33,691 bases of DNA from a virus. The first letter of the stretch is position 1. Every line of letters starts with the position of its first letter. The translations under genes were made by a program, and so were the position numbers. Location: the IMG/VR virus record IMGVR_UViG_3300017765_000017; one strand, 5' to 3'. Below, in pieces: positions 16,670 through 33,691 of this stretch. The notes below the pieces were generated by a model. It saw only the letters and a program-made list of their open reading frames with translations. It was not told the DNA's origin and ran no database searches.

Positions 16670-16678
16670 CTAACTCTC

Positions 16679-17428: not shown

Positions 17429-17429
17429 T

Positions 17430-17807
17430 TTATATTTCCTTTATAAGTACAGTTGACGCGGGACTGTAGTCCTTTAACTGCCGTTCCCAGCCTTTGCGCC
17501 CGATAATTTCCATTCCACTGCATCCGTGGTTTCTAGCCCACGTTACAAGTTCTTTCTCAGCCTCTATCAACTCATCCATCTCACCGCCAGCCAACCAAAT
17601 GCGACACACGGATTTTTTCGGGTAGTCAACTATCTCCGTCACTATAACAGAATTTCCCAGTGGGAAAAACTGCGCTTTTCCTTGCTTAATAGCATCTAGC
17701 ACATCTAGCGAACTATGTGTGCCACCTGAATATGCCAAAGCAGCATCTATGTGATGCGCTAATCTCTCAAACTCATCCAATAATGAGGTATGCAACGTCA
17801 ACGTCAT
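17430..17807 (-). CDS. Hypothetical virion-module protein
   Basis: Track ORF. Start is either ATG 17807 or TTG 17828, and both overlap the upstream gene. Confidence 0.45.
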   Translation of the reverse strand: MTLTLHTSLLDEFERLAHHIDAALAYSGGTHSSLDVLDAIKQGKAQFFPLGNSVIVTEIVDYPKKSVCRIWLAGGEMDELIEAEKELVTWARNHGCSGMEIIGRKGWERQLKDYSPASTVLIKEI

Positions 17808-18096
17808 GTCCGTGATTTTTGTGTTCAATTATCATCGTCCCATTGGTGCTAGTGCTTTTAACAAAAGGCAAACTGTGTTCTAGCGTTTCGTTGTAGCCGG
17901 TAAAAAATACGATACTCTCTACCCCATATCGCGGGTCGTTTACAGTAGTGGTGGTAGAACCCGATGTAAGCGTGGCATACCCAATACTATTTAATCCGCC
18001 ATCAATAGTCCTGTTCAACACCTCTGACACTTCTCTTGTGGTAGCTGTGACAGGGTTTAACGTGCGAAAGTTTACATTACGCTGTGCTGTTGTCAT
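17773..18096 (-). CDS. Hypothetical small structural protein
   Basis: 107-aa track ORF, Thr/Ser/Asn-rich, coupled to neighbours in the late operon. Confidence 0.5.
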   Translation of the reverse strand: MTTAQRNVNFRTLNPVTATTREVSEVLNRTIDGGLNSIGYATLTSGSTTTTVNDPRYGVESIVFFTGYNETLEHSLPFVKSTSTNGTMIIEHKNHGHDVDVAYLIIG

Positions 18097-19556
18097 CTGC
18101 GCCCCACTGGTCTTACATCAACGTCAACGCCGTGTGCGTATGACCATAAACCACTTAACACCATCTTAACACGGTGGTATCTGTCATGCGCTCTAAATGG
18201 CACAAACCCAGACGTATTTGTAGCACCACCATTTTGGAAGTTTACCGTGTCTGTGGGTGTGCCTCTAAGACCTACTGACAAGTTCACAGAGCCACCCTCG
18301 TGATACGGATAAATGCGCGTAACAATAGAGTGATTTCCGACTTTTATAGCCGCCTCACCTGTTACGATAGTTCCTTCCATCGGATCTCCAGAAAAAGCCG
18401 CTATTTTAGCGCCATTTGCGCCGCCAAACAGGTACTGACCGCCTTTGTATAGTGCGCTGTCCAGTGATGCTGGAAGGGCATCTAGGCTTGTGTTGATATT
18501 ATCTAGCTGCTCTAGTGAATAACCAGCCGTAAAAAACGGTGCCACTAGGTCGTTCTTGACCTTTACCAATGACCATCTGTTCAAAGCATAGTTAAATATC
18601 AGTAATCTATCTGGCTGAGAATCTAGCGAACTATTTGACACATATGACCACACAGCAAGCTGGTTTTGCGGGTCAACGGTAGATGTCATCTTGTCCTTAT
18701 ATGAGAAATTAAAATCTTCCTCTAAGAAGAACCTATCTACTTTTTCTGCACCAATAGGCTGAGAACGTGCGCCATCAAACATGTAAAAGCCGTCATCAGA
18801 CAGGTAGAATATGTTGTGGCCGATGTTGCACACAGAACCCGGCACCTGACAGCCTCTAGCAGTCTCGACTTTATCGAACTGAAATATCAGTGGCGGGCCT
18901 GAGTATGTGGCACGAATAATCGCACGTTCCATCAATATGGTGCAATATTCACCGCCAACCATACCAGTAATAGCACCAGCATCTGGGATGTCTTGAAAGT
19001 CAGACTGACCCGTGCCAGCCGTCCAGCTTGTCTGATCGTTAAATCCTGACCATTTAACGCGGTATGGTATCCGGCCAGAACCCTCATCAATATTGCCTGT
19101 CCATACAAAATCACGCACAACTGTCAAAAAGTCTGCTTTTGGTGGTGTTCCAGATAAATTAGAAAACGCTGTGTCGGTGCCTAATTGGAACTTTTGCAGT
19201 TCCTCTCCGATACCGCCTGATGCAATAAGTACGTCACCAAACTGCACAAACCGCCAACGCTCACTACTTTCCAAATCGTAAGCTGGTGTTCCCGCTTTAC
19301 TGACATCATCTAGATTTGTCGTGCCAGCATTGAACAGATACAACTTGCCCTGATCCCCTGCAAACAAACGCACGGTGCCATCATTGTCTTTTGCAGCAAA
19401 CACATTCAACAAAGTGTTTGAGCCAGCATTTGAATAATCGACAAAGTCGCTAAAGCTGCGATAGCCATTATATGCCGGGACTACGTTTGTAGCCTCTACG
19501 ACACCAGCATTTGTAAAATCTGGCTGATCGGGTAGCCATTCGCCAAACTGTATCAT
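18093..19556 (-). CDS. Tail/baseplate structural protein
   Basis: About 487 aa. ATG 19556 forms an ATGA overlap with the upstream stop (MIQFGEWLPDQPDFTNAG...). Position in the tail module. Shares an LDALPASLDSAL motif with the upstream gene. Confidence 0.55.
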   Translation of the reverse strand: MIQFGEWLPDQPDFTNAGVVEATNVVPAYNGYRSFSDFVDYSNAGSNTLLNVFAAKDNDGTVRLFAGDQGKLYLFNAGTTNLDDVSKAGTPAYDLESSERWRFVQFGDVLIASGGIGEELQKFQLGTDTAFSNLSGTPPKADFLTVVRDFVWTGNIDEGSGRIPYRVKWSGFNDQTSWTAGTGQSDFQDIPDAGAITGMVGGEYCTILMERAIIRATYSGPPLIFQFDKVETARGCQVPGSVCNIGHNIFYLSDDGFYMFDGARSQPIGAEKVDRFFLEEDFNFSYKDKMTSTVDPQNQLAVWSYVSNSSLDSQPDRLLIFNYALNRWSLVKVKNDLVAPFFTAGYSLEQLDNINTSLDALPASLDSALYKGGQYLFGGANGAKIAAFSGDPMEGTIVTGEAAIKVGNHSIVTRIYPYHEGGSVNLSVGLRGTPTDTVNFQNGGATNTSGFVPFRAHDRYHRVKMVLSGLWSYAHGVDVDVRPVGRR

Positions 19557-20278
19557 TGTAACGCCCAAACCTCTGTGCCAACTGATTGTATAGTCCAGAT
19601 CTCACTTCCAACAGGAATGTCAGTCCAAACCTCTGTACCCGGTGCAACTACCCCCCATTCTTCACCAAGCCGCTTTGCTTCACATGAAACAGTGATAGCA
19701 GCTTGTGTTTCACCCGGCATAGCAAATATACCATTTGCCGCGCCTGTTGTCGTTGCTGCTATAGATGCCGCGCTTTGTACGTTAAACACATAATTTGAAT
19801 CTGATGTAGCGCTAACAGAAATCGCCTCAGACGCGCTGTCAGTGCGTATACGGGTAGATACTGTAGATTCCGTAACAGCAACGCTCACAGAGGCGTCTAC
19901 CGTTCTTACAGGCGTTATAACAGCGGCAAAGCTGGCAGCACCTGTCACAGAGCCTGACATAGTGCGTATGCGAGTGTTATCTGCCGTAGCGGATGCGGAG
20001 ATAGACACCGCTGCTGGCATTTCAATCGCAAACTGTATAGCCGCTGCTGCTGTTATCGCAGCCGTGGCAGTGCCTTGAAAATGCTTAACGTCAAGATTAG
20101 CTAGTTGCTCAAGGTTGCCGAATGTATCTAACTGCTCAAGCGTACCCCAGTTGTCTAGCTGCTCTAATGTTGGATTAGACCAGTCAACCTTAGTAAGCAG
20201 TAATGCGCTGTCCAGCGAATATGGAAGCGCATCAATGCTGCTAGTAAAGTTGTCTAAACTGGGGGTGCCTGTAGCCAT
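19553..20278 (-). CDS. Repeat-containing structural protein
   Basis: Repeated LEQLD/LEQLA units, two TRIRT-containing repeats, and three C-terminal G(T/S)E(V/I)W repeats. Ala/Thr/Ser-rich. Confidence 0.5.
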   Translation of the reverse strand: MATGTPSLDNFTSSIDALPYSLDSALLLTKVDWSNPTLEQLDNWGTLEQLDTFGNLEQLANLDVKHFQGTATAAITAAAAIQFAIEMPAAVSISASATADNTRIRTMSGSVTGAASFAAVITPVRTVDASVSVAVTESTVSTRIRTDSASEAISVSATSDSNYVFNVQSAASIAATTTGAANGIFAMPGETQAAITVSCEAKRLGEEWGVVAPGTEVWTDIPVGSEIWTIQSVGTEVWALQ

Positions 20279-20287
20279 TAGCTACAC

Positions 20288-20674
20288 CTATGCCGCTGAG
20301 ATGTCTAAATCACCAGAAGAAATCTTTAGAATATCACCCGAATCTATCAGCTTTCCTGTAGTAAAAGCCCCGTGGATCAAAAGATTACCGCCTGAGCTTG
20401 CATCGAACAAACCAAAGTGGCTGACCACGCCCCAGCTTGCTGTGGCTGCTGAAAACTCAATAGCTGCGCTGTTGTCAGCAGTTCCAGAAGCCGCTGCGTT
20501 GAACGTAGCCGCTACACGAGTATAACCGTTGCCAGTCAACTCTGTGCCGCTGTTGTCATCAGCAAACGTGGCAGTTGCCAAGCCAACATACACAGCCGAT
20601 GGCATCGTATATGCGCCAGTTCCTAAGATATGGTCGAGAATCTCGTTCTCTAGGTAATCACTCATTGCAGACAT
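20288..20674 (-). CDS. Virion structural protein (conserved phage family, function unknown)
   Basis: NEILDHILG...VYVGLATATFADDNSGTELTGNGYTRVAATF...NSAAIEFSAATASWGVVSHFGLFDA is a pattern I recognise from many phage structural modules. GGAGAAG RBS. Confidence 0.5.
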   Translation of the reverse strand: MSAMSDYLENEILDHILGTGAYTMPSAVYVGLATATFADDNSGTELTGNGYTRVAATFNAAASGTADNSAAIEFSAATASWGVVSHFGLFDASSGGNLLIHGAFTTGKLIDSGDILKISSGDLDISAA

Positions 20675-20677
20675 GTG

Positions 20678-21319
20678 TTACTTCTCCGCTGTTACATTCT
20701 GCCGTAAGTAGACAGATTTAGTTTGTAGTGGCCCTGTGCCATAGTGTGAACGCTCTTCGTCCATCCGCACCTCATTTATAGCACGAGTGAACTTCTCATC
20801 ATACTGCGCGGCTCTCTGCTCATCCAACAGATACACATATGCTTCTGTTAGTGCGCCGTACAAATATAAGTCAGGTGAACGTATAAACAGTGTAGGAGTG
20901 CTAACATCAGACAATGTATCAACATTGCCAATGTAAATGATCTCCATTGTGTAACCACTGTCTGGTATAGGACGAACTTTCATCTCCTTACCAACTATGC
21001 TGTAGCCTTTTGGTTTGCCCTGACCATTGCTTGAATACTGCGTATCAAGTCCTGTAGGTGATGCGTAGGACAGCACCGTCAGTGGGCTTGTATTCAGCTT
21101 AACTTCTCTGACCTCACGCAAATCTGTCGGCAGAGCAATATACTCATCACCAGCTACAAGCGTTGCCTGTACGCGCTTCTCTTGCTCACGAGTTTCCAAC
21201 TCACGATTAATACGCGCTTCAGCTAACTGAATAAAGTTAGGTATCTGTGCGGTTAAATCATCACGAGCCAGAAAGTTGGCGATAGATGTCTGTAAGTCTG
21301 CGTAAGATGCAATAGCCAT
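20678..21319 (-). CDS. Head-tail adaptor/connector candidate
   Basis: 213 aa (MAIASYADLQTSIANFLARDDL...). Position downstream of the capsid module. Confidence 0.4.
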   Translation of the reverse strand: MAIASYADLQTSIANFLARDDLTAQIPNFIQLAEARINRELETREQEKRVQATLVAGDEYIALPTDLREVREVKLNTSPLTVLSYASPTGLDTQYSSNGQGKPKGYSIVGKEMKVRPIPDSGYTMEIIYIGNVDTLSDVSTPTLFIRSPDLYLYGALTEAYVYLLDEQRAAQYDEKFTRAINEVRMDEERSHYGTGPLQTKSVYLRQNVTAEK

Positions 21320-21639
21320 TAAACTTGTCCACCACCAGTTCTAAAGTCGCGGTTCTCGCTGTCGTTCAGCCACTGCTTCCACGCCTTTGGGTTTTCGCTT
21401 GGCTTGCCAAACTTTTCTACTAGGTGAGCATACACGACATTCGGTATTTCTGCCACATGCTGCATGTGCTTCTGGGTTCCGCGCAAACTGCCCGGACGCC
21501 AATCATTATTCATCTGACTGTTCAGCTTCATCAACGTGTCAAAGTTCTGCGTAGACTGGATGCGCTGAGAACCGTCAGTGTCAGTAACTAAGTCAATCTT
21601 TTTGCCTGTAACGGCATCATTAATTAGTGATCTTTTCAT
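21319..21639 (-). CDS. Hypothetical head-module protein
   Basis: ATG 21639 is preferred over TTG 21651. ATGA-type coupling with the next gene. Confidence 0.45.
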   Translation of the reverse strand: MKRSLINDAVTGKKIDLVTDTDGSQRIQSTQNFDTLMKLNSQMNNDWRPGSLRGTQKHMQHVAEIPNVVYAHLVEKFGKPSENPKAWKQWLNDSENRDFRTGGGQV

Positions 21640-21660
21640 ACTTTGCCCCAATGAGATGAA

Positions 21661-21679
21661 GGGGCGGCAGAACCGCCCC
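21661..21679 (-). terminator. Hairpin directly after the major capsid gene (attenuator or partial terminator)
   Basis: GGGGCGG-cagaa-CCGCCCC. The minus-strand read is followed by TTCATCTCATT, a weak U-tract. Confidence 0.45.
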
Positions 21680-21687
21680 CTCTAGTG

Positions 21688-22638
21688 TTATGATCCGCTC
21701 AGACCGATTACGGCTGCGTGGGCTTTAGGTGCAAGCACCTTCAAGGCCCATTCAGTCACAATCTGGAACTTCTCTGCGTCACCTGTTGGTGCAATTTCGT
21801 TTTCAGAGAAATTACGGCCATTGATGGTGCAAAGTGCAGCGAAGTCTGGGTCGATCAAGAAGACCTTGTCGTCACCCATAAAGCGTGAAGGAGCGACTTC
21901 CAATGTGCCGAAGTCAGTCAAGAAGACTGAAGTCGAACCAACGTAGGTCACTTCCTTGGCCGCTGTCATGTTGACATCGTTGCTGACCAAGTTGCCAGAA
22001 GCTGACAGGTCTGAGAAGTTAGCCCGGTTCGCGGCTGAACACGCCATAATTTTTGGCGATCCACCGTCTGTCCAAGCTGCTTGCATTGCTGTCTCAATCT
22101 GAGCCAGTGTCAACGCACGAGCAGTACCAGTCAGATCAGCTACGTCTGTGCCATCGCCAGTAGCGAAGGCCATATCACCCGGCGAATCACCATTGGTGAT
22201 CCAAGTGATGAGTGATGCTGATTTGCGAGGGTCTGAACCAGAACGAGCCACGTTTGTGTCACCGATTGCTTTTTCGATGTCACGACGAAGTTCCAATGAT
22301 TTCAGTACCTTCTGGTACGCTACTTCACGATCACGGCCAGCTTTTTCAACTGCATCAAGGGTCTTTGATACAGCTACTGCTTTGACTGAGATCTGATGGT
22401 AGTTGCCCAGACGGCTAGTAGCCGTTGGAGCAGCAACGCTGGCGTCTGCACCTTCGTTGACGTAGTTAGTAGCTGACGCGGCGGCCAATTCCTGAACTTG
22501 CCATTCGGTGAAGATACCGTTTGAGGTTTCCTTCTTCAGTGCGCTGAAGATAGGTGTTTCATCGGGGTCAATCCGATAGATGACATCGGCAAGCTGCTCG
22601 CGCTCACCAATAGCTGAAGATGTGGTAAAGGTACTCAT
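21688..22638 (-). CDS. Major capsid protein (HK97 fold, SU10/DUF5309-like family)
   Basis: N-terminus GEREQLADVIYRIDPDETPIFSALKKE...TEWQVQEL...NYVNEGAD matches the SU10-type capsid signature. AAGGAG RBS. Follows the scaffold gene. Confidence 0.8.
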   Translation of the reverse strand: MSTFTTSSAIGEREQLADVIYRIDPDETPIFSALKKETSNGIFTEWQVQELAAASATNYVNEGADASVAAPTATSRLGNYHQISVKAVAVSKTLDAVEKAGRDREVAYQKVLKSLELRRDIEKAIGDTNVARSGSDPRKSASLITWITNGDSPGDMAFATGDGTDVADLTGTARALTLAQIETAMQAAWTDGGSPKIMACSAANRANFSDLSASGNLVSNDVNMTAAKEVTYVGSTSVFLTDFGTLEVAPSRFMGDDKVFLIDPDFAALCTINGRNFSENEIAPTGDAEKFQIVTEWALKVLAPKAHAAVIGLSGS

Positions 22639-22658
22639 TTAATTGCTCCTTCTAAAAG

Positions 22659-23672
22659 CTAGTTACCCATCAAGTATGATACGGCTGCATCTACAGACCG
22701 CTCTTTATTGAGGCGGCTCATAGACTGTTGCCGTGAACGACTTGCAACTTGTTTCTTTGTGCGTGGCTGTCCAGCTTTAGCCATCTTAGGAGCTTGTCTT
22801 GTGCGTTTCTTAGCCGTGGGTTTCTTACGCTGTAGATTGTCCCACTGCATCGCTTTGTACAAAAGTTCCACGGCTCTAGCGTCTGTAGCCTGTGCAACTT
22901 CTTGTTCGCTAAATCCGATGTTACGAGCATACTCAACTACTTCAAGCCGCTCTTTATTCCGAACATCGTCATCCTTCCATTTAGGGATGCGATTTAGCAT
23001 GTCAGACCGTTGCGCTCTTAAATGCTCTTCAAGCATTTTTTGCTGTTCAACAGTCTGCTGTTGAGACAGTGCCTGTCTCTCTTGCTCCACTTTTGCGAGG
23101 TTGGCCTGTCGATTGTCGTACTCTGCTCTAATCGCGTTGTACTCTTCAGCCGTGACCTCTTTTGCTAATGAGACCCAATCAGGTTCCTGAGGAATTGTCT
23201 GTTGAATCTGCTGTGCCAGCACATCAAGTTGCTGTGCGTAGTAGTCTCTTGCTTGCTTTGCTTCGGCTGCTTCTTTCTCAGCAGCTTTCCGCATTTCGGC
23301 GGCTTCCTGACTACGCTTTGTAAAAGCCTGTTGTCGCTGATAACCTTGTAGGGCTTCGTCAAGGCTGACCTCTATTTCTTCACCATCTACTTTGACAGTG
23401 TAGACTGTTTCTTGAGGTTCCTCTTCTCCGTCCTCGTAGTCATCTTCTTCTTCAGACTCTTCGACATCATAAGCATCATCCTCATCATCCTCGTAGGATT
23501 CAGCCTCTAGCTGAGTGTCCTCTTCGGTGACTTCGGCCTCTGCCTCCATCGGTTGAGGAGCTTCTTGCTCCTCTGGTCGCTCTTCCTCTACCTTATCCGG
23601 GATGGGGGTATTTAGAAGGCTAACTGCATCATTTAATGAAATAGACCCGGTTCCTTGCGGATTGTCGGACAT
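22659..23672 (-). CDS. Scaffolding protein
   Basis: Highly acidic N-terminal third (EDDEDDAYDVEESEEEDDYEDGEEE), a long coiled-coil middle and a basic C-terminus. Sits immediately upstream of the capsid gene. Confidence 0.65.
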   Translation of the reverse strand: MSDNPQGTGSISLNDAVSLLNTPIPDKVEEERPEEQEAPQPMEAEAEVTEEDTQLEAESYEDDEDDAYDVEESEEEDDYEDGEEEPQETVYTVKVDGEEIEVSLDEALQGYQRQQAFTKRSQEAAEMRKAAEKEAAEAKQARDYYAQQLDVLAQQIQQTIPQEPDWVSLAKEVTAEEYNAIRAEYDNRQANLAKVEQERQALSQQQTVEQQKMLEEHLRAQRSDMLNRIPKWKDDDVRNKERLEVVEYARNIGFSEQEVAQATDARAVELLYKAMQWDNLQRKKPTAKKRTRQAPKMAKAGQPRTKKQVASRSRQQSMSRLNKERSVDAAVSYLMGN

Positions 23673-23675
23673 AAC

Positions 23676-23963
23676 TTATTTCCTTTTCTCAAATTGTTGG
23701 CGTTTGTGCAACTCCTGTAATGTTGCTTTTGCCAATTTTCCATCTTCCACTACCTTGTGAATGTAGGTCTTAACTGCTTCCAAGTTCTGACAAAGCATAT
23801 ATAGGCGCTCTCTAGCTTCCGTGTCACCTATGCCGCTCTGCTTCCAAGCACTCGTAAATTCGTTCTCTAAATACTCAAAACTTTCTATGAATATTTCATT
23901 GCGTAATACGGCCTCTGCCTTGTCGGCTCTAGCCATCTGTTCCCTTGCTTTTCCTTCGTTCAT
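23676..23963 (-). CDS. Hypothetical coiled-coil head-module protein
   Basis: 95-aa track ORF with ATGA coupling to the upstream gene. Confidence 0.5.
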   Translation of the reverse strand: MNEGKAREQMARADKAEAVLRNEIFIESFEYLENEFTSAWKQSGIGDTEARERLYMLCQNLEAVKTYIHKVVEDGKLAKATLQELHKRQQFEKRK

Positions 23964-25120
23964 GCTAGTAACGTGTATCCTTGTAAGTTATACGGGTCTT
24001 GAAATATGCCAGCCTGTGTTCCAGCACGGCGGCGGTATTCTAAATTTGCTGCCTCAAATTCTTCCGGGGTCATAAATCCTGTGCCGTAAGTTGATGCAAA
24101 ACCGCCCAAGTCTTCTGGTGCTACATCCAGCAAGCCCATACGAGCGTATGTGCCGGGTTCATATGTGAAACCGTCACCGCCTACTGTTTCGCCTACTGTT
24201 TCGCCTACTGTTTCGCCTACGTTAGCTAGTGGTGCGGAAACACGACATGCTTGTATGTCAGCATCGAATACATAACCTTCTGGGCATTGCTGCTCTCCAG
24301 TTACTGGGTTCGTTTGCGTTGGGACGATTTCTCTTTCTGGGCCATCTCCTTGTGGCCCGGCACCCGGCCCTCTTCCAAAGCCAGTATAAACGCCACCAAG
24401 ATCTGCCTCTGTTGTGGGTTCTGGCATAAGGCTAGTAAGCAATCCAGCAATACCGGGCGTAAAACCAAGAATGCTTGGCCCTGTAAAACCAGTAACTTTT
24501 CCAGTGTCATCAAAATCATAATTATAAGCACCAGTAAAGAACGGCGAAGTAGGGTCTAACATAGCTTTCATATAAGATGGCATTGCTTTAAACTGCTCAC
24601 GAGTTAATCCAGCCATTTTTCTTGTGCCACCTATATTGCCTAAAGCCTGACTAACAGCCCTATCTAATTGGGCTTTTGTAGCTGCGCCATAGTCGGTCTC
24701 ATCAAACGCTTGCTTTAAGCCAGCAGCTTTCTCAGCCGCTCTTTTTGCGGCGGTTTCTTGTGCGAGTTTAGCATTTGCTGCGGCTATTCTTTGCCTAGCG
24801 GCTTCACCGGCTGCTTGCCTTTCTCTTTCTTGCGCTGCTTCTCTTGCTCTATCAGCGGCCCTATCTCTAGCAGCTTGCGCCGCATCTCTATCTTCGCTTC
24901 TGCCATCATAATCTCTGCCACGTCCCCCAAATCCGCCCTGAGAGCGACCAGCGTCTGGGCCGCCATAAAAAGCAGGGATACCCATTGGCCCCGGCTTTCC
25001 CGCGCCGCCGTTGTTCATAAGCAACTGTGCCTCATCTGGTGTGATGTAAGCCAGTAAGTGGTCTTGACCGCGAATATCTACGCGGCGTGGCGGATTATTG
25101 CTTTTCATCTTATTCGGCAT
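23960..25120 (-). CDS. Virion-associated protein with a conserved N-terminal LLAYITPDEAQLL...GIPAFY motif
   Basis: The motif HLLAYITPDEAQLLMNNGGAGKPGPMGIPAFYGG recurs in marine phage structural modules, as I recall. Follows the portal gene and contains an in-frame GETV tandem repeat. Confidence 0.5.
   Translation of the reverse strand: MPNKMKSNNPPRRVDIRGQDHLLAYITPDEAQLLMNNGGAGKPGPMGIPAFYGGPDAGRSQGGFGGRGRDYDGRSEDRDAAQAARDRAADRAREAAQERERQAAGEAARQRIAAANAKLAQETAAKRAAEKAAGLKQAFDETDYGAATKAQLDRAVSQALGNIGGTRKMAGLTREQFKAMPSYMKAMLDPTSPFFTGAYNYDFDDTGKVTGFTGPSILGFTPGIAGLLTSLMPEPTTEADLGGVYTGFGRGPGAGPQGDGPEREIVPTQTNPVTGEQQCPEGYVFDADIQACRVSAPLANVGETVGETVGETVGGDGFTYEPGTYARMGLLDVAPEDLGGFASTYGTGFMTPEEFEAANLEYRRRAGTQAGIFQDPYNLQGYTLLA
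24179..24220. repeat. 12-bp tandem repeat, 3.5 copies (gcctactgtttc), in frame, encoding (GETV)n
   Basis: Units at 24179-24190, 24191-24202 and 24203-24214, plus a half unit at 24215-24220. Confidence 0.9.
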
Positions 25121-25121
25121 T

Positions 25122-27134
25122 TTACACTCGCGGCAGGTTGGTTGAGATTTGTGAATCTGTTACAGCTTTCGCCATACGCAACTCAGCTTCGGCTTGCAAC
25201 TCCTGACGGCGTAGTTCCATCTCCATCGTCATTCGCTCACGCTCTAGCTGAATATCGGCTTGCATCTTCTCACGCTTCAACGCCAGTTCTGCTTTCATCT
25301 GCTGCTGCTTCATAGCAATAGCTGGATCTGGCTGTGGTGGCTGCTGCTGTTGTTGCTGTTGCTGCATCTGTATCTGCTGTGGGCTGCTAAAGAACATATC
25401 AGCGTCCTTGAAGCCACCAATCTCAGCAATGCTGCGAAGTGTGTTTACATACTGAGCCATAGTTACAACAGGATTGCTTGGCCCTAACTGCATCAATATC
25501 TGCTCTTGCTTTGCAGCAATCTGTGTCAGGAACGCAATCTTCTGCTCATCATCAGCCGTTCCAAGCCCTACCTGTACTACGACATCGTATTCGCTTGTCC
25601 ACTCACGCGGGTCAATCGGCACAAAGTTATTACGCAAACGCACAATGCGCGGCTTGTTGTCGTACTTTGTGACCAAGTGCAAAATGCCTTTAAATAGCGA
25701 TTTTACGCCTGTCTCAGCCATTGTACGCGCATAGCTTTCCAGCTTTACCTGTGCGCCACGAACTGTCGCACTAATGGCGCTGGCGGTCGTTGACTGCAAC
25801 GCATTTGCATCTAAGCCCTGTGATGCTTTGCTCATGCCTGTACGCTGCTCTTTGATGTTGTCCAGATAATCCATCAAAGGCCGTACTTCTCCGCCTACAG
25901 GTGTGCCTGTAATGGCTTGCACCATACCGGGCTGACGAGCGCGAATGATGCCGCCAGCAGTACCCTCAAGCAAATCATCTAGATTCACCTGACCTTCAAC
26001 AGCAACCATACGAGGCAGTGTGCTGGTGTAAACGCTGTCCAGATACTGACGCATCAGTGTTGACTTGATAACCTGTAGGTCTTCAGTCATGTCGTAGATA
26101 CTGCGGCCAATCAGGCGGTGTGGCATCAATACTGGCGATACCACAGCAAACGGCACATGATCGAATGGCTCGTTATGCAGAATGTGTGTGCCTTCAGCAC
26201 CGATAGCACAGATACGGCGGCGTTCAGCAATGCCATCACCGTCATAATCAACCTTCATAATGCACTCGTAGTACACGACCTCGCGCAATGTCGGGTCAGC
26301 CGCGTCAGTGCCTGTATTAGCTTCTAAATCTTGGAAACGATTTGTGCGTTCTTCATCAACATCCAGATCTGACAAACCAGCGTGTGCCTCTACCTCTTCG
26401 CGGTCATAGCCCATAGCTACCAAGTCTGACACTGTCATTGTAGTGCGGTGGGCAACGAAATACGCCTCATCTAAGCTGGTAGCACGGCGATTAACCAGAA
26501 ACTCTTCCGGCGGTACGTTTATGACCTTAATCTTGCCTTTACGCTCCGTAACACGCACAGACAGATCATACGAACTTTCAAGAGGCACCACCGTTCCGTC
26601 ATCTTCCATATACGAATTAACAACGGTTTCTTGCTGCTCAACCACTTCAACATCTGGGTTAGCCAGTAATACGGCAAGTTCGTTTTCATCAAGCCCGTTA
26701 TATTCTTCCTCAGTGACATTTTCTTCCTCTTCATAGAAATACTTGACCACACCAAGACGAAACAACAAGGCGTCCTTGAACCAGTTATACAGGATTTTAT
26801 AGCCTTCATTGTCGTGGTTGATTATGTAATTTACATAGTCACTGACTTGCTCTGCACGTTCCATATCCTCTGCCGTGCGAGCGCTAAAACGTACATATTT
26901 GTCATTGGCTGTGAAGACGCGCATCAGGTTGGGCATAATAGCCTCAACTGTGTCTGCGACTTCTGTGCTTACTACAGATGATCTACCCTCTACCTCGTTG
27001 CCGAATGGCTCGCCAAGGTAGAAGTCCATAGCGCGAATACGCTCTTGAGAAAACTCACTGTCAAAGTGGTTCAGCGCATCGGTAATTTCCGAAGAAACAA
27101 TGCTATTAAGTTTGTAATCATCCATATCTGGCAT
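25122..27134 (-). CDS. Portal protein
   Basis: About 670 aa. Position between the terminase region and the scaffold/capsid genes. Long C-terminal poly-Q plus coiled-coil extension. ATG 27134 with a GAAGGAAAAG RBS is preferred over 27164. Confidence 0.75.
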   Translation of the reverse strand: MPDMDDYKLNSIVSSEITDALNHFDSEFSQERIRAMDFYLGEPFGNEVEGRSSVVSTEVADTVEAIMPNLMRVFTANDKYVRFSARTAEDMERAEQVSDYVNYIINHDNEGYKILYNWFKDALLFRLGVVKYFYEEEENVTEEEYNGLDENELAVLLANPDVEVVEQQETVVNSYMEDDGTVVPLESSYDLSVRVTERKGKIKVINVPPEEFLVNRRATSLDEAYFVAHRTTMTVSDLVAMGYDREEVEAHAGLSDLDVDEERTNRFQDLEANTGTDAADPTLREVVYYECIMKVDYDGDGIAERRRICAIGAEGTHILHNEPFDHVPFAVVSPVLMPHRLIGRSIYDMTEDLQVIKSTLMRQYLDSVYTSTLPRMVAVEGQVNLDDLLEGTAGGIIRARQPGMVQAITGTPVGGEVRPLMDYLDNIKEQRTGMSKASQGLDANALQSTTASAISATVRGAQVKLESYARTMAETGVKSLFKGILHLVTKYDNKPRIVRLRNNFVPIDPREWTSEYDVVVQVGLGTADDEQKIAFLTQIAAKQEQILMQLGPSNPVVTMAQYVNTLRSIAEIGGFKDADMFFSSPQQIQMQQQQQQQQPPQPDPAIAMKQQQMKAELALKREKMQADIQLERERMTMEMELRRQELQAEAELRMAKAVTDSQISTNLPRV

Positions 27135-27135
27135 A

Positions 27136-27357
27136 TTACTTTTCCTTCGGCTTCTTACGCCCATACATGCAAGTGCCGCTGGCCTTACACATCTTTTTAG
27201 CTACACAACCTTTACAGGCAGAAAAGCCAACATTTTCAACAGCTTCTAATACCGCAGATGCTGAAACGGAAGCCGTCACTTTCGCTTGGGCTTCCTTGCT
27301 TAATTGCAGTGGCCTACGACGCTGTGTGCGTGGCCGCATCATCACTCGTGTGTACAT
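27136..27357 (-). CDS. Tiny basic Cys-containing protein G
   Basis: MYTRVMMRPRTQRRRP...FSACKGCVAKKMCKASGTCMYGRKKPKEK. Coupled start and stop. Confidence 0.55.
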   Translation of the reverse strand: MYTRVMMRPRTQRRRPLQLSKEAQAKVTASVSASAVLEAVENVGFSACKGCVAKKMCKASGTCMYGRKKPKEK

Positions 27358-27563
27358 CAGTCGCTTGCAAAACTTCCTGTCATAACATTTTGACGATCTT
27401 TAGCTGCCTTTCTTTCTTGAGCAGCCATACGCTTTTTTGTTGCTTCTATGCGGCCTTCTGTCATAGGGCGCATTGAGGATGGTGTTCTGCGACCAGTAAA
27501 TTTTTCAATAGCTGTAGGTCGTGGCATAGGCATAGCCATATTGCTTTTACTTTTGTATGTCAT
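27357..27563 (-). CDS. Tiny basic protein F
   Basis: 68 aa, Arg/Lys/Met/Pro-rich, with ATGA-type coupling on both sides. Confidence 0.5.
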   Translation of the reverse strand: MTYKSKSNMAMPMPRPTAIEKFTGRRTPSSMRPMTEGRIEATKKRMAAQERKAAKDRQNVMTGSFASD

Positions 27564-27748
27564 TTCTTTGCGGCCTTCTTTTTTCCAACTTTGCGAAGCG
27601 GTGATGTCATACCAACGCCTGTTGATGTTTTAACAGGAACAGATTCCGGCTCTGGTAATATAACAGGTTCTGCACCATTTTTATAGACTATGCAACGACC
27701 CGCTGGCTCACAACGCCGGGGCATAGGACAATTGTCACAAATATTCAT
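27560..27748 (-). CDS. Tiny basic Cys-containing protein E
   Basis: MNICDNCPMPRRCEPAGRC... with a KVGKKKAAKK tail. ATGA overlaps. Confidence 0.5.
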   Translation of the reverse strand: MNICDNCPMPRRCEPAGRCIVYKNGAEPVILPEPESVPVKTSTGVGMTSPLRKVGKKKAAKK

Positions 27749-27969
27749 GCTTTATTCCTTTTCTTGCCACTAGAAGTCACAGACCAGCTAACGCGCTTCG
27801 GCCCGGTTTTCTTACTAGCTTCTTTCTTGCTTATACGTCCAGCAACCTTTGCGGGTCTACAGGCTGGGTATCCACGCTTCTCGCCTTTAGAGCGACCACA
27901 GGGTTTCCCGGTCTTTACATCGACCCATTTTTCGCCGAACCATTTACCTAAACCCGCCTGTGCAGCCAT
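27745..27969 (-). CDS. Tiny basic protein D (KWFGEKWVD...GYPACRP motif)
   Basis: Internal ATG 27969 forms a TAATG overlap with the unlisted upstream ORF (MAAQAGLGKWFGEKWVDVKTGKPCGRSKGEKRGYPACRP...). Confidence 0.55.
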   Translation of the reverse strand: MAAQAGLGKWFGEKWVDVKTGKPCGRSKGEKRGYPACRPAKVAGRISKKEASKKTGPKRVSWSVTSSGKKRNKA

Positions 27970-28142
27970 TACGCTTTCCTTACACGATTGTCTGAGCCGC
28001 CCCACTTGCCGCCACGTTCTTTGTACCACTTTGCCGCATAAGCATTAGCGTAAGCTGACGGGTAAACATCAAACTTACGCTTTGCTGCTGCTATGGCTTT
28101 TTTCCACAGAGCGGGGTTTTTTGGAACTGATTTGCCAGCCAT
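27969..28142 (-). CDS. Tiny basic protein C (57 aa, not in the track; YPSAYANAYAAKWYKERGG motif)
   Basis: My own translation from ATG 28142: MAGKSVPKNPALWKKAIAAAKRKFDVYPSAYANAYAAKWYKERGGKWGGSDNRVRKA, with TAA at 27971-27969. Confidence 0.6.
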   Translation of the reverse strand: MAGKSVPKNPALWKKAIAAAKRKFDVYPSAYANAYAAKWYKERGGKWGGSDNRVRKA

Positions 28143-28182
28143 TACTTACCGTAACCTTTGCCTTTTTTCTTTCCGTATCCCA

Positions 28183-28359
28183 TTATGTCCTCTTTCTGGC
28201 CTTCTTTTTGGCCGTTTCTGAAAGTTCACCAAAATGGTACAGCCGAACAGAATTTGCTGTATGCTTTGAGCCGCTATGCAAAGAACCGTCAGGCATCTTG
28301 TGCATACCGCCAGCATACTTTGTACCATCACGAAGATAATGCGCTACACCTTTTGCCAT
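28183..28359 (-). CDS. Tiny basic protein B (MHKMPDGSLHSG motif)
   Basis: ATG 28359 (TAATG overlap) or ATG 28365. Lys/Arg C-terminal tail KKKARKRT. Confidence 0.5.
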   Translation of the reverse strand: MAKGVAHYLRDGTKYAGGMHKMPDGSLHSGSKHTANSVRLYHFGELSETAKKKARKRT

Positions 28360-28640
28360 TACCATTTCACCTTATTAGCCCAATAGGCCGCTGAACATTT
28401 ACCTTTGGCAATATTTTTCGCATGTCTTGCTTTGAAGGACTTGCGCCTCGCTTTTTCAGCCATCGTGCGAGGGTTTTTGCCGGCACCGCTAACGCCTTGC
28501 TGACCAAACCTGATTGTCTTAACGCTACCGTCTTCGCATTTTGCCACGACAACGTGGCTCTTTTTAGGATGATTAGGGGTGCGTTTGGGCTTATTATAGC
28601 CAGATACACCAGCGCGTTCCAGCCGTGGATCTCTAGGCAT
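28359..28640 (-). CDS. Small basic protein A (..KSHVVVAK..IRFGQQG..SAAYWANKVKW)
   Basis: 93-aa track ORF. Its start overlaps the upstream stop in ATGCCTAG. Confidence 0.6.
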   Translation of the reverse strand: MPRDPRLERAGVSGYNKPKRTPNHPKKSHVVVAKCEDGSVKTIRFGQQGVSGAGKNPRTMAEKARRKSFKARHAKNIAKGKCSAAYWANKVKW

Positions 28641-28920
28641 CGTATTTAACCTCTTGCACCTTCACGGATTCAAACGTGTCTTCAATCTCTTCCGTAGACA
28701 GCCCGGCTCTCAAGCCAGCATTAACTGCTACAGACATAGCCGCGTCCATCACATGCTGCCATTTTGCGTCAGAAGTGACAATAAGTCCAGCAGTGTGCAT
28801 TTCCATCATCACCACAATGGCCTCGACCATCTCTTCATATTCTTCCTGAGTTTCTTCCAACTCAACCTCAACGTCAATTTCTAAGCCGCGCTTCGGAAAC
28901 TTCAGAATATTGTCAGTCAT
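28633..28920 (-). CDS. Small acidic protein
   Basis: ATG 28920 forms an ATGA overlap with the TerL stop. Contains EIDVEVELEETQEEYEEMVEAI. Confidence 0.55.
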   Translation of the reverse strand: MTDNILKFPKRGLEIDVEVELEETQEEYEEMVEAIVVMMEMHTAGLIVTSDAKWQHVMDAAMSVAVNAGLRAGLSTEEIEDTFESVKVQEVKYDA

Positions 28921-30314
28921 ACTACCCATCCTGTGTTTGGTTTAAGACTGCGCTTGCTACTATACCCTCTAGAGTAGCCTCCTGCAATCGCACCGCTTTC
29001 AGCAAAACTCAAAACAAACGCATCAGCCACATCCGGGCTACGCTGGCCCCTACGTTTCATCTCATCTTTGCTTTCTACCTTCAGTTTACCATTAGACAGA
29101 TATTTATACCTAATGCCAGTGATCTCCTGTATCAAAGTCGCATCATTCGGGATGTTGCAATCCCTTGCCTCAAACCATTCACGGGCGTTCCAAAACAACT
29201 CATCTCTCAGCCGATTAAACCGCTCCTTCAAACTAGCAGTCTCCGACACAGAAATTGCAACGGCTGGTAAATCCAACTCGCGCAACCTGTCAGCCAAGCC
29301 AGCACCAATGCCAATAGCATCAATAAATATGCTTTGAGGACGCAACCGATATGTAGTTGCCTCAAACTCAGACAGCACAATACCAGCCATCTCCATCAAA
29401 TCACGACCCTGATACGTCTTAATCGGCTCCAGAAGCACATTATCCTGACGCTTGGCTATGGCACTCCTATCACCGCCGAATCTTGCAACGTCCACGCCCC
29501 AAACTACAGGTGCCGTGGGTGACGCTTCGACATCTCTCTTAGTCGCTTCTTCCACAAGATGTAGCGGTAACAAGACATCATCCGACTGGGTAGGGAACTG
29601 ACCCAAGACACGAACTCTGTAAACATTGCTATCTTCACCGTATTTTTCCTTCATATTTTCCAAGAACTGCTCAGAAACAGTCGTGGCATCGTGGCAACTT
29701 ACCGTCATAGTAAACCAGTTTTTACGCTGGCTATGATGGCTCTCATAGAAAAAACCCTCAGAACGTGTGGGGTTTCCGCACATTACCGTCTTAGCGCCGG
29801 GGGTAGACATAGCGCCTTCACCGACCTGAAAGACAACATCGGGAATACCTGACGCCTCTTCGCACAAAAACAGCATATTCTCTGAGTGAAAGCCTTGCAG
29901 AGCTTCTGGGTTCTCACGTCTGCTGGTTCTTGCAACGGCAAAGCTATCTGACGCACCCTTCAAGCTAATCTTGTCGCTCTTAAACTCTAGCAACTGCTTG
30001 AAACCTTCCGGCAACTGACGCGCCCATTTGTCGATCTCAGTCCACAGCACATCACTCAACTGGTGCGCCGTGTTCGCCGTAACAGCAACTTTGCACGGAT
30101 AATGCGTTATCAGCCACCACAGCACGAGCCAGCTTTGAAATGCAGTCTTACCAACACCGTGACCAGATGCAATGCTCACCTTGTCATTGTTGCCTACCGC
30201 CCTCAACGCTTCGGCTTGCCACGGCTGGGGTGTCACCTTCAAAATGCTCTCAACGAATAGAACCGGGTCGTTGTGCAGCTTTACGAGCAGATCAGTGTTT
30301 TCGGTTTTTTTCAC
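28917..30314 (-). CDS. terL: Terminase large subunit
   Basis: Walker A SGHGVGKTA near the N-terminus. 465 aa. ATGA-type overlap with the small subunit gene upstream. Confidence 0.85.
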   Translation of the reverse strand: MKKTENTDLLVKLHNDPVLFVESILKVTPQPWQAEALRAVGNNDKVSIASGHGVGKTAFQSWLVLWWLITHYPCKVAVTANTAHQLSDVLWTEIDKWARQLPEGFKQLLEFKSDKISLKGASDSFAVARTSRRENPEALQGFHSENMLFLCEEASGIPDVVFQVGEGAMSTPGAKTVMCGNPTRSEGFFYESHHSQRKNWFTMTVSCHDATTVSEQFLENMKEKYGEDSNVYRVRVLGQFPTQSDDVLLPLHLVEEATKRDVEASPTAPVVWGVDVARFGGDRSAIAKRQDNVLLEPIKTYQGRDLMEMAGIVLSEFEATTYRLRPQSIFIDAIGIGAGLADRLRELDLPAVAISVSETASLKERFNRLRDELFWNAREWFEARDCNIPNDATLIQEITGIRYKYLSNGKLKVESKDEMKRRGQRSPDVADAFVLSFAESGAIAGGYSRGYSSKRSLKPNTGWVV

Positions 30315-30778
30315 TTCTCTTCAGCCTCGCCCTCAATGGTCTTGTCAGCTAGTCGCTGTTGCTCTATCTGCGCTGCCGCCAGCTTCAACTCATCAACAAA
30401 GCTGACGACCTTATGCTCATGCTCGACCTTCTGGTTCTCGCCGTACAGCTTAGGATACAGCTTTGCCGCTCGCCACTTGTAGGTGTCGATGACCACACGC
30501 GCTTGCTGGGCATCCAACTCGCCGTACTTCATCTGCTCAATAGCGTCGTCAATGTCATCATCAATCTTCTGCGCTCGCAGTTCCATCGCAACACGATACT
30601 TGTCGCGGAACTCGCCGTCATCACGCAGCCATTTGCTGATAGTGGGAAACGTAGGCAACTTGCCACTAGAACACGCCTTACGCGCTGACAGGCCGTCAGA
30701 CACCAGTTCTATGAACAAATCTTTCTGTTCGGCCATCTGTGCGCCAGATATGGGCGCGGGGCCTCTTTTCTTCGGCAT
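30311..30778 (-). CDS. terS: Terminase small subunit
   Basis: N-terminal HTH-like region (FIELVSDGLSARKACS), then DAQQARVVIDTYKWRAAKLYPKLYGE, typical of TerS families. AAGGAG RBS. Confidence 0.7.
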   Translation of the reverse strand: MPKKRGPAPISGAQMAEQKDLFIELVSDGLSARKACSSGKLPTFPTISKWLRDDGEFRDKYRVAMELRAQKIDDDIDDAIEQMKYGELDAQQARVVIDTYKWRAAKLYPKLYGENQKVEHEHKVVSFVDELKLAAAQIEQQRLADKTIEGEAEEK

Positions 30779-30845
30779 ATCTCACTCCTTATTTGCCAAA
30801 TAACATCTTTAGTTTAGCAGTGCAAGAAAACTTGCAACGAATTTT

Positions 30846-30906
30846 GGGTGGCAGGGACGTTTTGGGTGGGGGAGATTGAAGGGGGGGGTGAGAGGGTGAG
30901 AGAGGG
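30846..30906 (+). repeat. G-rich arm with a G-quadruplex-type run pattern on the + strand
   Basis: TTTTGGGTGG occurs twice (30842, 30860). A G8 run lies at 30881-30888. GGGGGGGGTGAGAGGGTGAGAGAGGG gives four G3 runs with loops of 7 nt or less. Confidence 0.8.
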
Positions 30907-31011
30907 ACTATTATATATTTATGCCGCCCCCCGCGCAGATTTGATGGGGGGGTGTGGTATCATAGCACCACATGCCGGGATGTTTTAACGTGTTAGCACA
31001 TGAACACGGCC

Positions 31012-31050
31012 AACATTATGCGACAAAGATAATAAACATTATGCGACAAA
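31012..31050 (+). repeat. Two direct 16-bp repeats AACATTATGCGACAAA (iteron/operator candidates)
   Basis: Copies at 31012-31027 and 31035-31050, 23 bp start to start. Confidence 0.9.
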
Positions 31051-31186
31051 ACAAATCGCGCTAGGCTGCGCTGTGACGGCTTGCAACGACTGCCGATGAC
31101 GGATCATACACGGCGGCACCCAAAGCCAGCCAGTGGCCTTCCTATGGCCTTTCGTGCGCGTTGTGGTATTTTATTACCGTATGACG

Positions 31187-31235
31187 CCCTCACCCCCACC
31201 ACCCTCACCCATTCACCCACAACCACCACCACCAC
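31187..31235 (-). repeat. C-rich arm (G-quadruplex-type pattern on the - strand), an imperfect mirror of the G-rich arm
   Basis: + strand CCCTCACCCCCACCACCCTCACCCATTCACCC. The reverse complement GGGTGAATGGGTGAGGGTGGTGGGGGTGAGGG shares GGGTGAG units with 30846-30906. Confidence 0.8.
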
Positions 31236-31275
31236 AAAAAACCGCTAGCCGTTGCAAGATTTTTGCGTTTTCTGT

Positions 31276-31304
31276 TTGCATTATGTCAATTATATATTTA
31301 CAAT
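31276..31304 (+). promoter_or_regulatory. Sigma70-type early promoter
   Basis: TTGCAT (31276-31281), 17 nt, then TACAAT (31299-31304). The spacer contains CATTATGTCAAT, also found at 3179-3190. An AAGGGG RBS precedes ATG 31342. Confidence 0.6.
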
Positions 31305-31341
31305 CTTATAAATAAGACAATAGCGACAAGGGGTTTTTGCT

Positions 31342-32106
31342 ATGAAACAATTATCTAAAACAGAAAAAGCCGTGATGAATGGTGTTAGCGTTTACGGTAA
31401 CCGCGTCAAATCCGTTGCCGACGGAATGGCAAAAACAGAAACAGTTATCAAGAAAAGCACCAATGTAAAGCTTGGCAAGAAAGTGACGAAAGGCAAGCTT
31501 GCCGGATTCCCCATCTATACAGTGACGTTACAAGAACGCGCAACATGCCCGGCCTCATGCATCCATTGGCACGATTGTTATGGCAACAATATGATGTTTG
31601 CCGTGCGTTACAATGCCGACGCTGATTTAATAGCCGCAATGGAATCAGAGTTACATGTATTGCAAAAGAAACACCCGGCTGGCTTTTTAGTGCGTTTGCA
31701 TGTACTAGGCGATTTTTTCAGCGTTTCATATGTGGCGCAATGGGCAAAATGGCTGGCAATGTTCCCGGCTTTGCATGTTTACGGATACACCGCGAATCAA
31801 CCGGATGCATCCGACAACAAAGAACGCGGAATTGGTCAAGCCGTTCTATCGTTGCGTATGGCTTGCGGCATCCGTTTTGCGGTGCGTTTTTCCGGTTCAT
31901 ATAGCGACCAATTCAGCGCGTTATCGGCAGATGATGACAAGGCGGTTGATATGCTTTTCAGAAAGAAAGCTTTTGCTTGCCCTACACAAATCAGCAAAGA
32001 GACTGGAAAACTGGCAAAGAAAGATGAACCGACACTTGTCGATTCATGCGGTGCATGTGGCTTATGCTGGCAAGCTTCAAAGCCAGTCGTATTTTTAACC
32101 CATTAA
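31342..32106 (+). CDS. GP88-domain-like protein with two Cys clusters (possible metal/Fe-S site)
   Basis: TLQERATCPASCIHWHDCYGNN (C-x3-C-x5-C) and C-terminal CPTQ...DSCGACGLCW (C-x2-C-x2-C). The overall pattern resembles the phage GP88 family as I recall it. Confidence 0.5.
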   Translation: MKQLSKTEKAVMNGVSVYGNRVKSVADGMAKTETVIKKSTNVKLGKKVTKGKLAGFPIYTVTLQERATCPASCIHWHDCYGNNMMFAVRYNADADLIAAMESELHVLQKKHPAGFLVRLHVLGDFFSVSYVAQWAKWLAMFPALHVYGYTANQPDASDNKERGIGQAVLSLRMACGIRFAVRFSGSYSDQFSALSADDDKAVDMLFRKKAFACPTQISKETGKLAKKDEPTLVDSCGACGLCWQASKPVVFLTH

Positions 32107-33541: not shown

Positions 33542-33691
33542 AAAAGAACAATGGGAAATCGACCGCGAAAACCGCATCAAAGCTGAAAAAGCTAGTATGA
33601 ATGCGCTAACACCAAGCCAGCGTGAAGCAATCAAAAAAGCGCATAATGCTTTGCGTGATTTTGTCAATGAATGGTCAGACGGCTTTGACCT
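33534..33691 (+). CDS. N-terminal part of the junction-spanning 80-aa ORF (continues at 2..208)
   Basis: ATG 33534 overlaps the upstream stop (ATGGCTAA). The frame stays open to the window end and continues through the repeat. Confidence 0.6.
   Translation, partial: MAKKEQWEIDRENRIKAEKASMNALTPSQREAIKKAHNALRDFVNEWSDGFD
33569..33691. repeat. Terminal direct repeat copy 2 (identical to 1..123)
   Basis: Base-for-base identity with the window start. Confidence 0.95.

Follow-up and report, generated by a model that had tools for sequence, protein, structure and literature searches.

Window positions 30779-31341 form a 563 bp non-coding hub in the 33,691-nucleotide virus record IMGVR_UViG_3300017765_000017 (IMG/VR), the whole of which is called the window here. 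The hub is by far the largest non-coding stretch of the genome and separates the start of the small terminase gene terS (30778, - strand) from the first + strand gene (31342, GP88-like). It is conserved, has a defined architecture that is partly associated with the replication genes, and contains the point at which a strongly oriented nine-nucleotide word changes polarity. Drawing on comparison with related genomes we propose, tentatively and with a probability of about 0.45, that the hub is a composite centred on a replication origin, in which the origin is joined to a terminase-linked signal and to two outward promoters. An earlier note on this DNA had described the hub as lacking any credible open reading frame (ORF), which is borne out, as all its ORFs are of 60 amino acids or fewer and cannot be conserved because the insertions and deletions that distinguish relatives are not multiples of three. 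It likewise encodes no structured RNA that we could recognise: no tRNA, tmRNA or Rfam 15 match is present in the hub even at E<=5, and with an RNAalifold covariation term of -0.43 for the right core this candidate was rejected.

Architecture of the hub

The left part of the hub begins with the terS 5' leader (30779-30817, - strand), which carries the ribosome-binding site AAGGAG and is conserved within the clade. It adjoins the block CAGTGCAAGAAAACTTGCAACGA (30818-30840), the same in 26 relatives and absent from the Type 2 genomes described below, which holds the first copy of the polar word CTTGCAACG (30831-30839, + strand), the palindrome TGCAAG-AAAA-CTTGCA (30821-30836, fold z = -3.4) and, on the - strand, GTTGCAAG-N12-GCTAAACT, which we take to be a candidate alphaproteobacterial-type promoter for terS. 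The G-tract arm follows (30842-30906, + strand), hypervariable in length and sequence among relatives and composed in the window of T4G3 repeats (TTTTGGGTGG at 30842 and 30860), a G8 run (30881-30888) and GGGTGAGA units (30884-30901). To its right lies an AT block, TATTATATATTTATG (30909-30923), invariant in the alignment of relatives. Family-wide its + strand has TATATT, and TATAAT on its - strand is restricted to the window clade; the block may serve in unwinding or as a -10 element. Next to it is the signature element of the family, a dyad of CCG-C6, 13 nt (GCGCAGATTTGAT) and G7 (30924-30952). Its runs are always poly-C then poly-G, hence there is no covariation, and its fold energy is unremarkable (z about -1), as is that of the other small hairpins (z -0.4 to -1.2), so that unusually stable structures are unsupported here.

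The core of the hub consists of short elements. The palindrome TGTGGT-N8-ACCACA (30953-30972) is the left copy of a 25-nt direct repeat that recurs at 31162-31186 with 72% identity and is swapped for other cassettes in relatives. The GTRTTAGCAC cassette (TGTTTTAACGTGTTAGCACATGA, 30981-31003), present in 0 to 2 copies in relatives, precedes two exact, iteron-like 16-bp direct repeats, AACATTATGCGACAAA (31012-31050, + strand), which start at 31012 and 31035 and so stand in tandem 23 bp apart, about 2 helical turns; they share the core TTATGCGACA, whose reverse complement gives the TGTCGCATAA box found family-wide. The second copy of the polar word (31080-31088, + strand) is embedded in the conserved GTGACGGCTTGCAACG. 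It borders the conserved right core (31089-31186), made up of a small variable insert (31135-31150), a CGCGCG box (31153-31161) and the palindrome GTGGTAT-N-TACC (31162-31180); here relatives carry TGATATAAT, an extended -10-like sequence, and here the word switches polarity (between 31089 and 31250). In most relatives the CGCGCG box, with which the module closes (TCGCGCGTGTGG; GTCGCGCGTGCGCG in Type 2), contains GCGCGTG, the Chi sequence of Lactococcus, a match that is probably a coincidence.

The right flank opens with the C-tract arm (31187-31235, + strand), which an A6 run follows; the arm is hypervariable and found only in genomes whose hub lies upstream of terS. The reverse complement of the arm is GGGTGAATGGGTGAGGGTGGTGGGGGTGAGGG, and the version in L007 has CCCTAA-like units. 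The third copy of the word (31250-31258, - strand, reading CGTTGCAAG on the + strand) is the first of the right-hand orientation run, and the predicted sigma-70-like early promoter TTTGCA-N18-TACAAT (31275-31304, + strand), of which ATGTCAAT...TACA is conserved, lies upstream of the GP88-like gene. The elements picked out beforehand from the sequence, namely the G- and C-arms, the 16-bp repeats, the TGCAAG palindrome, the 30953-30972 hairpin and three copies of CTTGCAACG (30831 +, 31080 +, 31250 -) with their change of orientation, are thus all present at the positions given.

An ancient module and interchangeable cassettes

About 60 related marine phage contigs were collected from IMG/VR and JGI metagenomes by searches with TerS, the portal, the initiator and DNA patterns, and the hubs of 26 genomes were aligned; a search for whole relatives with the 567-aa protein encoded at 13450-15153 returned 2 loci only. 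The alignment shows a mosaic in which invariant blocks (CAGTGCAAGAAAACTTGCAAC; ACTATTATATATTTATG-CCGCCCCCC-GCGCAGATTYGAT-GGGGGGG; GTGACGGCTTGCAACG; the CGCGCG box; CGTTGCAAGTTTTT; the early promoter) alternate with the hypervariable arms and with interchangeable cassettes (30953-31060). About 40 relatives, with portal identities as low as 62%, each have exactly one match to a relaxed signature of G-run, AT block of no less than 8-9 bp, C-run, 6-30 nt and G-run. This module always lies directly upstream of a terminase gene, in either of two gene layouts, and is usually followed by a GTTAAC-type palindrome and then by a TGTCGCATAA(C/T)GTTnATTATG box. In Type 1 (the window clade, L049, L056, L062) it is upstream of terS, followed by the C-arm and the divergent early promoter. 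In Type 2 (L065, L071, L084, L088, others and the isolate C72C1) it lies between terS and terL in a co-directional operon that has no C-arm. All family members possess the G-arm in a shorter version; in Type 2 it is 20-45 nt long and abuts the terL ribosome-binding site.

The presence of the module in both layouts, with the C-arm and early promoter confined to Type 1, indicates that the left half of the hub is ancient and terminase-linked and that the C-arm and early promoter were added later. As judged from the alignment, the hub is therefore a structure of three layers: an ancient terminase-linked module, a variable core of binding-site cassettes, and a clade-specific C-arm with its early promoter. 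This supports the view of the hub as a conserved functional non-coding centre and no simple spacer. In C72C1 (L041) the module, with G6, G9 and G7 runs and a TGTCGCATAA box, occupies 19280-19495 between terL and terS, where CDS0032 (19292-19405) and CDS0033 (19414-19521) are annotated as hypothetical proteins; both fall within the module and are probably spurious.

Association of the core with replication genes

The AT block is 15 bp long and lies 90 bp from the 16-bp repeats; the window is without a DnaA box. The initiators of relatives share a C-terminal domain fused to one of two unrelated N-terminal winged-helix domains, and the O/DnaD-like initiator of the window (763-1590, - strand), with a winged helix-turn-helix N-domain of type I, is the proposed trans-acting partner of the core repeats. 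In counts that ignore shared ancestry, the AACATTATGCGACAAA pair is present in 4/4 genomes with type I initiators, drawn from two TerS sub-clades, and in 1/8 with type II, while the ATCAATCGCA cassette occurs in type II genomes only, in 3 lineages. This association is maintained across the 4-5 kb of unrelated mosaic genes that separate the two loci. A perfect DnaA box, TGTGGATAA, lies about 100 nt from the G-run in 8/11 Type 2 genomes encoding a primase-helicase, compared with 0/17 of those with an O-like initiator, and its CCTGTGGATAAC form is restricted to a sub-clade in which a 634-aa primase-helicase replaces the O-like initiator. The core cassettes differ among genomes with nearly identical TerS; in particular, the TTATGCGACA box can be present or absent with near-identical TerS and is therefore not a TerS site.

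Two further observations concern these genes and boxes. The exchange of the initiator N-domain falls at about residue 100-135 (window 763-1590; L055, L122, L133, L050, L132, L048, L051), and would be a modular swapping of origin specificity. The DnaA box within CCTGTGGATAAC has a fixed position and is followed by a T-rich tract (L067, L080, L081, L084, L088-L090, L092, L095, L099, L112, L113). Two other origin signals were sought. Lambda-like iterons within the initiator gene were ruled out, none being found there, and GC skew was rejected because it follows gene strand and transcription only.

In the mechanism that we consider, the variable core (about 30953-31186), pieced together from short protein-binding cassettes, most likely serves as the origin. 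The O/DnaD-like initiator may bind the two 16-bp repeats, which it would meet one 23-bp period apart near an AT-rich block, and replication may fire from this site; sister clades with a primase-helicase instead have the perfect DnaA box at the same position. The module (30842-30952; G-arm, AT block and dyad) is probably a site for late-operon expression or terminase entry, which in the window clade would have been set between divergent operons and have gained the C-tract arm and early promoter. Comparable theta origins built on iterons (lambda ori with O; P1 oriR and plasmid origins with DnaA boxes) share with the hub the direct repeats at about 2 helical turns, the nearby AT-rich block, a winged-helix O/DnaD-like initiator whose N-terminal domain can be swapped, and the DnaA box seen here in sister genomes. 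The hub differs from them in having two repeats only, which lie 3-5 kb away from the initiator gene and not within it, in its fusion to a terminase-linked module, in the G/C-tract arms that flank it and in its imperfect association with initiator type.

Several points weigh against an origin. Only two iterons are present, and the initiator-cassette association, computed regardless of shared ancestry, breaks in L175 and L196. The TGTCGCATAA box is family-wide whatever the replication protein, and the genomes with a DnaA box, which the window lacks, may be a single lineage. Constant adjacency to a terminase gene would be expected of a pac or cos site, the iterons and AT block are both on the left of the polarity switch (31089-31250), and GC skew gives no origin signal. 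Given the imperfect associations and the universal TGTCGCATAA box, the origin is the best supported reading, not a proven one: of the candidate origin put forward earlier, what stands is that the core repeats partly behave like origin iterons.

A word whose polarity switches in the hub

The 9-mer CTTGCAACG occurs in 11 copies against 0.59 expected, an approximately 20-fold over-representation that 0/100 shuffles reach. When all 8-mers were scanned without bias, with the hub and its antipode as switch points, CTTGCAAC came out as the most polar (14/14 copies, the runner-up 8/10). Its + strand copies run from 14906 to 31080 and its - strand copies from 31251, across the window end, to 11450, giving flips at 31089-31250 and at 11458-14905, an interval that includes the antipode (about 14.3-14.4 kb). 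The switch that had been noticed in the hub is real, conserved and exceptional. The second flip is inside the late operon (7968-30778), which is on one strand throughout, and the copies at 1713, 2389, 8462 and 11450 oppose transcription, which makes the polarity independent of gene direction. Copies lie in different reading frames, encoding VAR, A/ELQ or LAT, and the orientation is kept in relatives though individual sites are gained and lost. C72C1 has the same polarity and, in addition, five GTTGCAAG copies in one orientation within 830 bp (21195-22023); this cluster is in and just upstream of the initiator gene, close to the right of terS, and all its copies are anti-oriented to transcription. 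The distant Type 2 relatives are without the word and no analogous polar word was found in them, the T7-like RCA roseophages that share the GP88-like gene have 0-1 copies, and a literature search found no mention of the word or of C72C1.

Several copies are of interest in themselves. Those at 1713 and 2389 sit in the neighbourhood equivalent to the C72C1 cluster. In the sub-clade with 86% TerS identity (L021, L031, L048, L050-L052) a conserved pair of the word in opposite orientation, spaced about 130 bp, lies inside terL at distances of about 1.41 and 1.54 kb to the left of the AT block; it is the single recurrent exception to the polarity rule, and the window has degenerate 7-mers at these sites (29154, 29255). 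The peptide D-L-A-T-I-S is encoded across the word in two unrelated genes, at 2383-2400 (RusA-like) and 11444-11461 (gene 11041-11607), and these sites, GACCTTGCAACgATcAGc and GACCTTGCAACtATtAGt, hint at an extended motif, CTTGCAAC-N-AT. One copy (8461, - strand) is in a 288-bp non-coding gap in the late-operon region (8300-8588).

On both sides of the hub the 5'->3' strand leaving it reads CGTTGCAAG, and both outward-reading strands share one layout: C-tract array, A-run, CGTTGCAAG, T-run. If DNA synthesis or DNA ends began in the hub, this would account for CGTTGCAAG being on the outward 5'->3' strand as far as the antipode. Equally, a nuclease moving away from the hub would meet 5'-CTTGCAACG-3' from its 3' side. 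Chi, KOPS and AIMS are skewed chromosomal octamers. By analogy with these, the orientation of the word is as expected of a Chi-like or replication-skewed word: it too is an over-represented 8-9-mer, oriented by genome position, with copies near the presumed end or start region. The same can be said of its closest precedent, the Chi sites of the lambdoid phages LLS and MD8, which are oriented and clustered near the open packaging end (PMC12315714). The word of the window differs from the unipolar sites of LLS in being bipolar, with opposed runs that meet in the hub and near the antipode, and the window phage encodes a recombination pair, a Cas4-like exonuclease and a Sak annealase, whereas these Chi-rich lambdoids are without Rec modules (PMC12315714).

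Genome and relatives

The first and last 123 bases of the window are identical (1-123, 33569-33691) and inside coding DNA. The record is thus a circular assembly of 33,568 bp unique length on which window coordinates wrap; as a terminal repeat the overlap was rejected, being coding DNA far from the hub and an assembly artefact of the circle. The terminase genes and an SU10/LUZ24-type portal gene are on the - strand. The small terminase (30311-30778) is a homologue of Sf6 gp1 (Sf6_terminase match and PDB Sf6 gp1, E = 2e-13); the large terminase (28917-30314) has its recognisable relatives in C72C1, phiM5, clostridial phages and, distantly, P1 PacB, none of them T7-like. The circle also encodes a PD-(D/E)XK protein, an HNH endonuclease, RusA, a Cro-like helix-turn-helix protein, an endolysin and a holin; no integrase was found in the genome. 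A second, short divergent control region (3152-3272), with a 12-nt inverted repeat (3054-3065 / 3270-3281), separates the Cro-like gene (2955-3152, - strand) from the exonuclease/Sak operon (3272 onwards, + strand).

The nearest isolate is Phage C72C1 (unpublished; GenBank OQ984150), 79% identical in TerL and portal, and remoter relatives include Sinorhizobium ΦM5, OM43 phage Venkman, Pelagibacter HTVC106P and LUZ24-like phages. A search of 185k species genomes turned up neither a close prophage relative nor a host, the best match having 50% portal identity. The GP88-like gene (31342-32106, + strand) is about 70% identical in nucleotides to the first gene of the T7-like RCA roseophages CRP-361 and CRP-114 (L001 812-1582; L002 1-771). 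This likeness suggests that the gene has been exchanged and is a hint that the host is a roseobacter; the regions upstream of the gene are unrelated between the window and these roseophages.

Alternative functions of the hub

We weighed the composite origin against other explanations, for which our estimates overlap and do not sum to one. That the hub, or at any rate the invariant module on its left, serves a headful packager as its pac site we consider possible, if on the unlikely side. Here an Sf6-type TerS would assemble on the G-tract, AT block and C6-N13-G7 dyad, TerL would make its first cut nearby and package leftwards through terS, and the two DNA ends created would be met by inward-facing Chi-like words. 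The kinship of TerS with Sf6 gp1 and the distant similarity of TerL to P1 PacB are in keeping with this, as is the position of the module, which adjoins either terS or terL in all relatives regardless of how the genes are ordered. A circular assembly with an arbitrary break, seen in complete-size relatives too, is compatible with circular permutation, of which it is no proof. Headful packagers offer structural parallels as well: SPP1 has pacL-pacC-pacR upstream of and inside terS, and P1 has a pac with repeat arms flanking the cut, so that with SPP1, P1 and P22/Sf6 the hub shares a non-coding element next to terS, repeat-bearing arms around a central segment and, in its own Sf6 gp1-homologous TerS, the protein. 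The oriented Chi clusters beside the open packaging end of LLS and MD8 (PMC12315714) provide a precedent for the word, and the five GTTGCAAG copies of C72C1 lie within their 830 bp just right of terS. The hub departs from known pac regions, however, in being larger, in partly tracking the replication genes and in that no TerS-specific covarying motif was found in it. P22-type and Sf6-type pac sites are usually inside terS, which we count against a site here. The conserved DnaA box and the initiator association would be unexpected for a pac site, and the word is bipolar, unlike that of LLS; scattered contig ends, described below, are uninformative on where packaging starts. An Sf6-type TerS is encoded beside the hub, but the variable cassettes do not follow it.

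A purely transcriptional hub is rather unlikely. It would be a divergent promoter/operator region with a late -10 in the AT block, an activator bound to the C6-N13-G7 dyad and the early promoter; and, with the same low likelihood, the arms would give C-rich, G-poor leaders with a Rho-loading or insulating function and the cassettes would be operators of swapped regulators. The predicted sigma-70-like early promoter and the TATAAT on the - strand of the AT block are what this would require, and the dyad centre is about 40 bp upstream of that -10, which we infer to be a class II activator position. Transcripts that run outward across either arm would contain 56-58% C and 2-3% G, and the swapping of cassettes resembles that of immunity regions. 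Yet in Type 2 genomes the module is within a co-directional operon, where the - strand -10 misfits TAnnnT and the G-arm is reduced to its 20-45 nt, and the polar word ignores gene direction, not only at 1713, 2389, 8462 and 11450 but in the five anti-oriented copies of the C72C1 cluster. There is no anti-Shine-Dalgarno covariation, and a C-rich leader that sequesters the terS ribosome-binding site was rejected on duplex energies, which are equal (own -9.97, other -9.73 kcal/mol).

A further idea, which we regard as very improbable, is that DNA ends or rolling-circle tails are made inside the hub, and both its flanks carry an end-protection architecture and bipolar Chi-like words. The arrays would then be sub-terminal, with the G-rich strand running 5'->3' toward the end on both sides in the polarity of telomeres, a long shot in its own right, and the first Chi-like word, with an equally slim chance, would be met within about 100-200 bp of each hub side. 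If so, the word would be the Chi of the AddAB/RecBCD of the uncultured marine host.

That the arms work by folding into G-quadruplexes (G4) on opposite strands, for instance as fork or polymerase barriers bracketing the core, is also highly doubtful; this judgement concerns the mechanism of the arms, a question that overlaps with the other readings. The strict G4 pattern (four G3+ runs, loops <=7) is confined in the 33.7-kb window to the two arms (30846-30872 and 30881-30906 on the + strand, 31187-31218 on the - strand), and 24/26 C-arms keep it if loops of up to 12 nt are allowed. Against this, in the alignment of relatives strict patterns are kept in just 10/26 G-arms (13/26 with relaxed loops) and 14/26 C-arms, and 39% of composition-matched shuffles produce one. 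What is conserved instead of tract geometry is the extreme asymmetry of G and C between strands, with C-depletion of the G-arm (G 44-57%, C 0-7%). Hence the G4-type arms of the earlier note are real as a pattern on opposite strands, but as a conserved property beyond composition G4 was rejected, the motif being present in about half of the relatives. Its imperfect inverted pair fares similarly. G-arm and C-arm are complementary over 17-20 nt at 80-82%, but the mean pairing score of a G-arm is 17.9 with its own C-arm and 18.9 with those of other genomes; own arms pair no better than foreign ones, so the arms are not a co-evolving stem, which we rejected, and their complementarity is compositional.

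Physical genome ends in the hub, whether a cos at the C6-N13-G7 dyad or a short T7-like direct terminal repeat spanning the core, are the least credible alternative: the word polarity would suit a nuclease that enters at ends in the hub, breaks in the G-arm or dyad are seen in many contigs from both sides, and the order of G-arm, core of about 280 bp and C-arm is superficially like the SRR-terminal repeat-SRL of the T7 concatemer junction, but the terminase is neither T7-like nor lambda-like, Type 2 relatives have no C-arm, the places at which complete-size relatives are broken are arbitrary, and the contig breaks in the hub scatter. Contigs from the terS side end at window-equivalent positions 30832, 30887, 30895, 30904, 30924, 30942 and 31050, and those from the early side at about 30957, 30925, 30893, 30865, 30783 and 30762 (breaks inside the G-arm or dyad, from both directions, in L003-L005, L013, L033, L036, L182, L187, L196-L198, L200, L207). 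These are spread over about 300 bp (30762-31056) with no pile-up at one or two coordinates, and coincide with the G8-G10 homopolymers and the hypervariable array, typical trouble spots of sequencing and assembly, which argues for assembly failure more than for a terminus. With contig ends so dispersed and the 123-bp overlap far away in coding DNA, precise ends in the hub, as had been envisaged, are not upheld; the contig ends of relatives give no sign of cos ends or of a T7-type terminal repeat there, and the ΦGT1/ΦM5 paper holds no data on termini. Nor is the T7 analogy supported. In the T7 junction, as in the hub, short-repeat arrays stand on both sides of a segment measuring a few hundred bp, close to the terminase genes, but the hub is linked to a different terminase family, with a TerS of Sf6 type, and its arrays are mirrored rather than direct, hypervariable and without a fixed 7-bp unit.

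Implications

The family module and the bipolar word appear to be undescribed. If the composite origin is correct, an abundant family of uncultured marine podophages would carry a cis-signature by its terminase genes, consisting of G-run, AT block, C-run, N10-16 and G-run, which could anchor genome orientation, the prediction of origins or pac sites, and annotation, for example of the hypothetical proteins of C72C1. In practice, metagenome assemblies of this phage family break up at the hub because of its G8-G10 tracts. Cassettes that are swapped along with initiator N-domains or the DnaA box would put origin specificity to the test in a clean natural experiment. Least expected of all the elements is the bipolar CTTGCAACG word, which may provide a route to a Chi-like or replication-linked sequence of the uncultured host.

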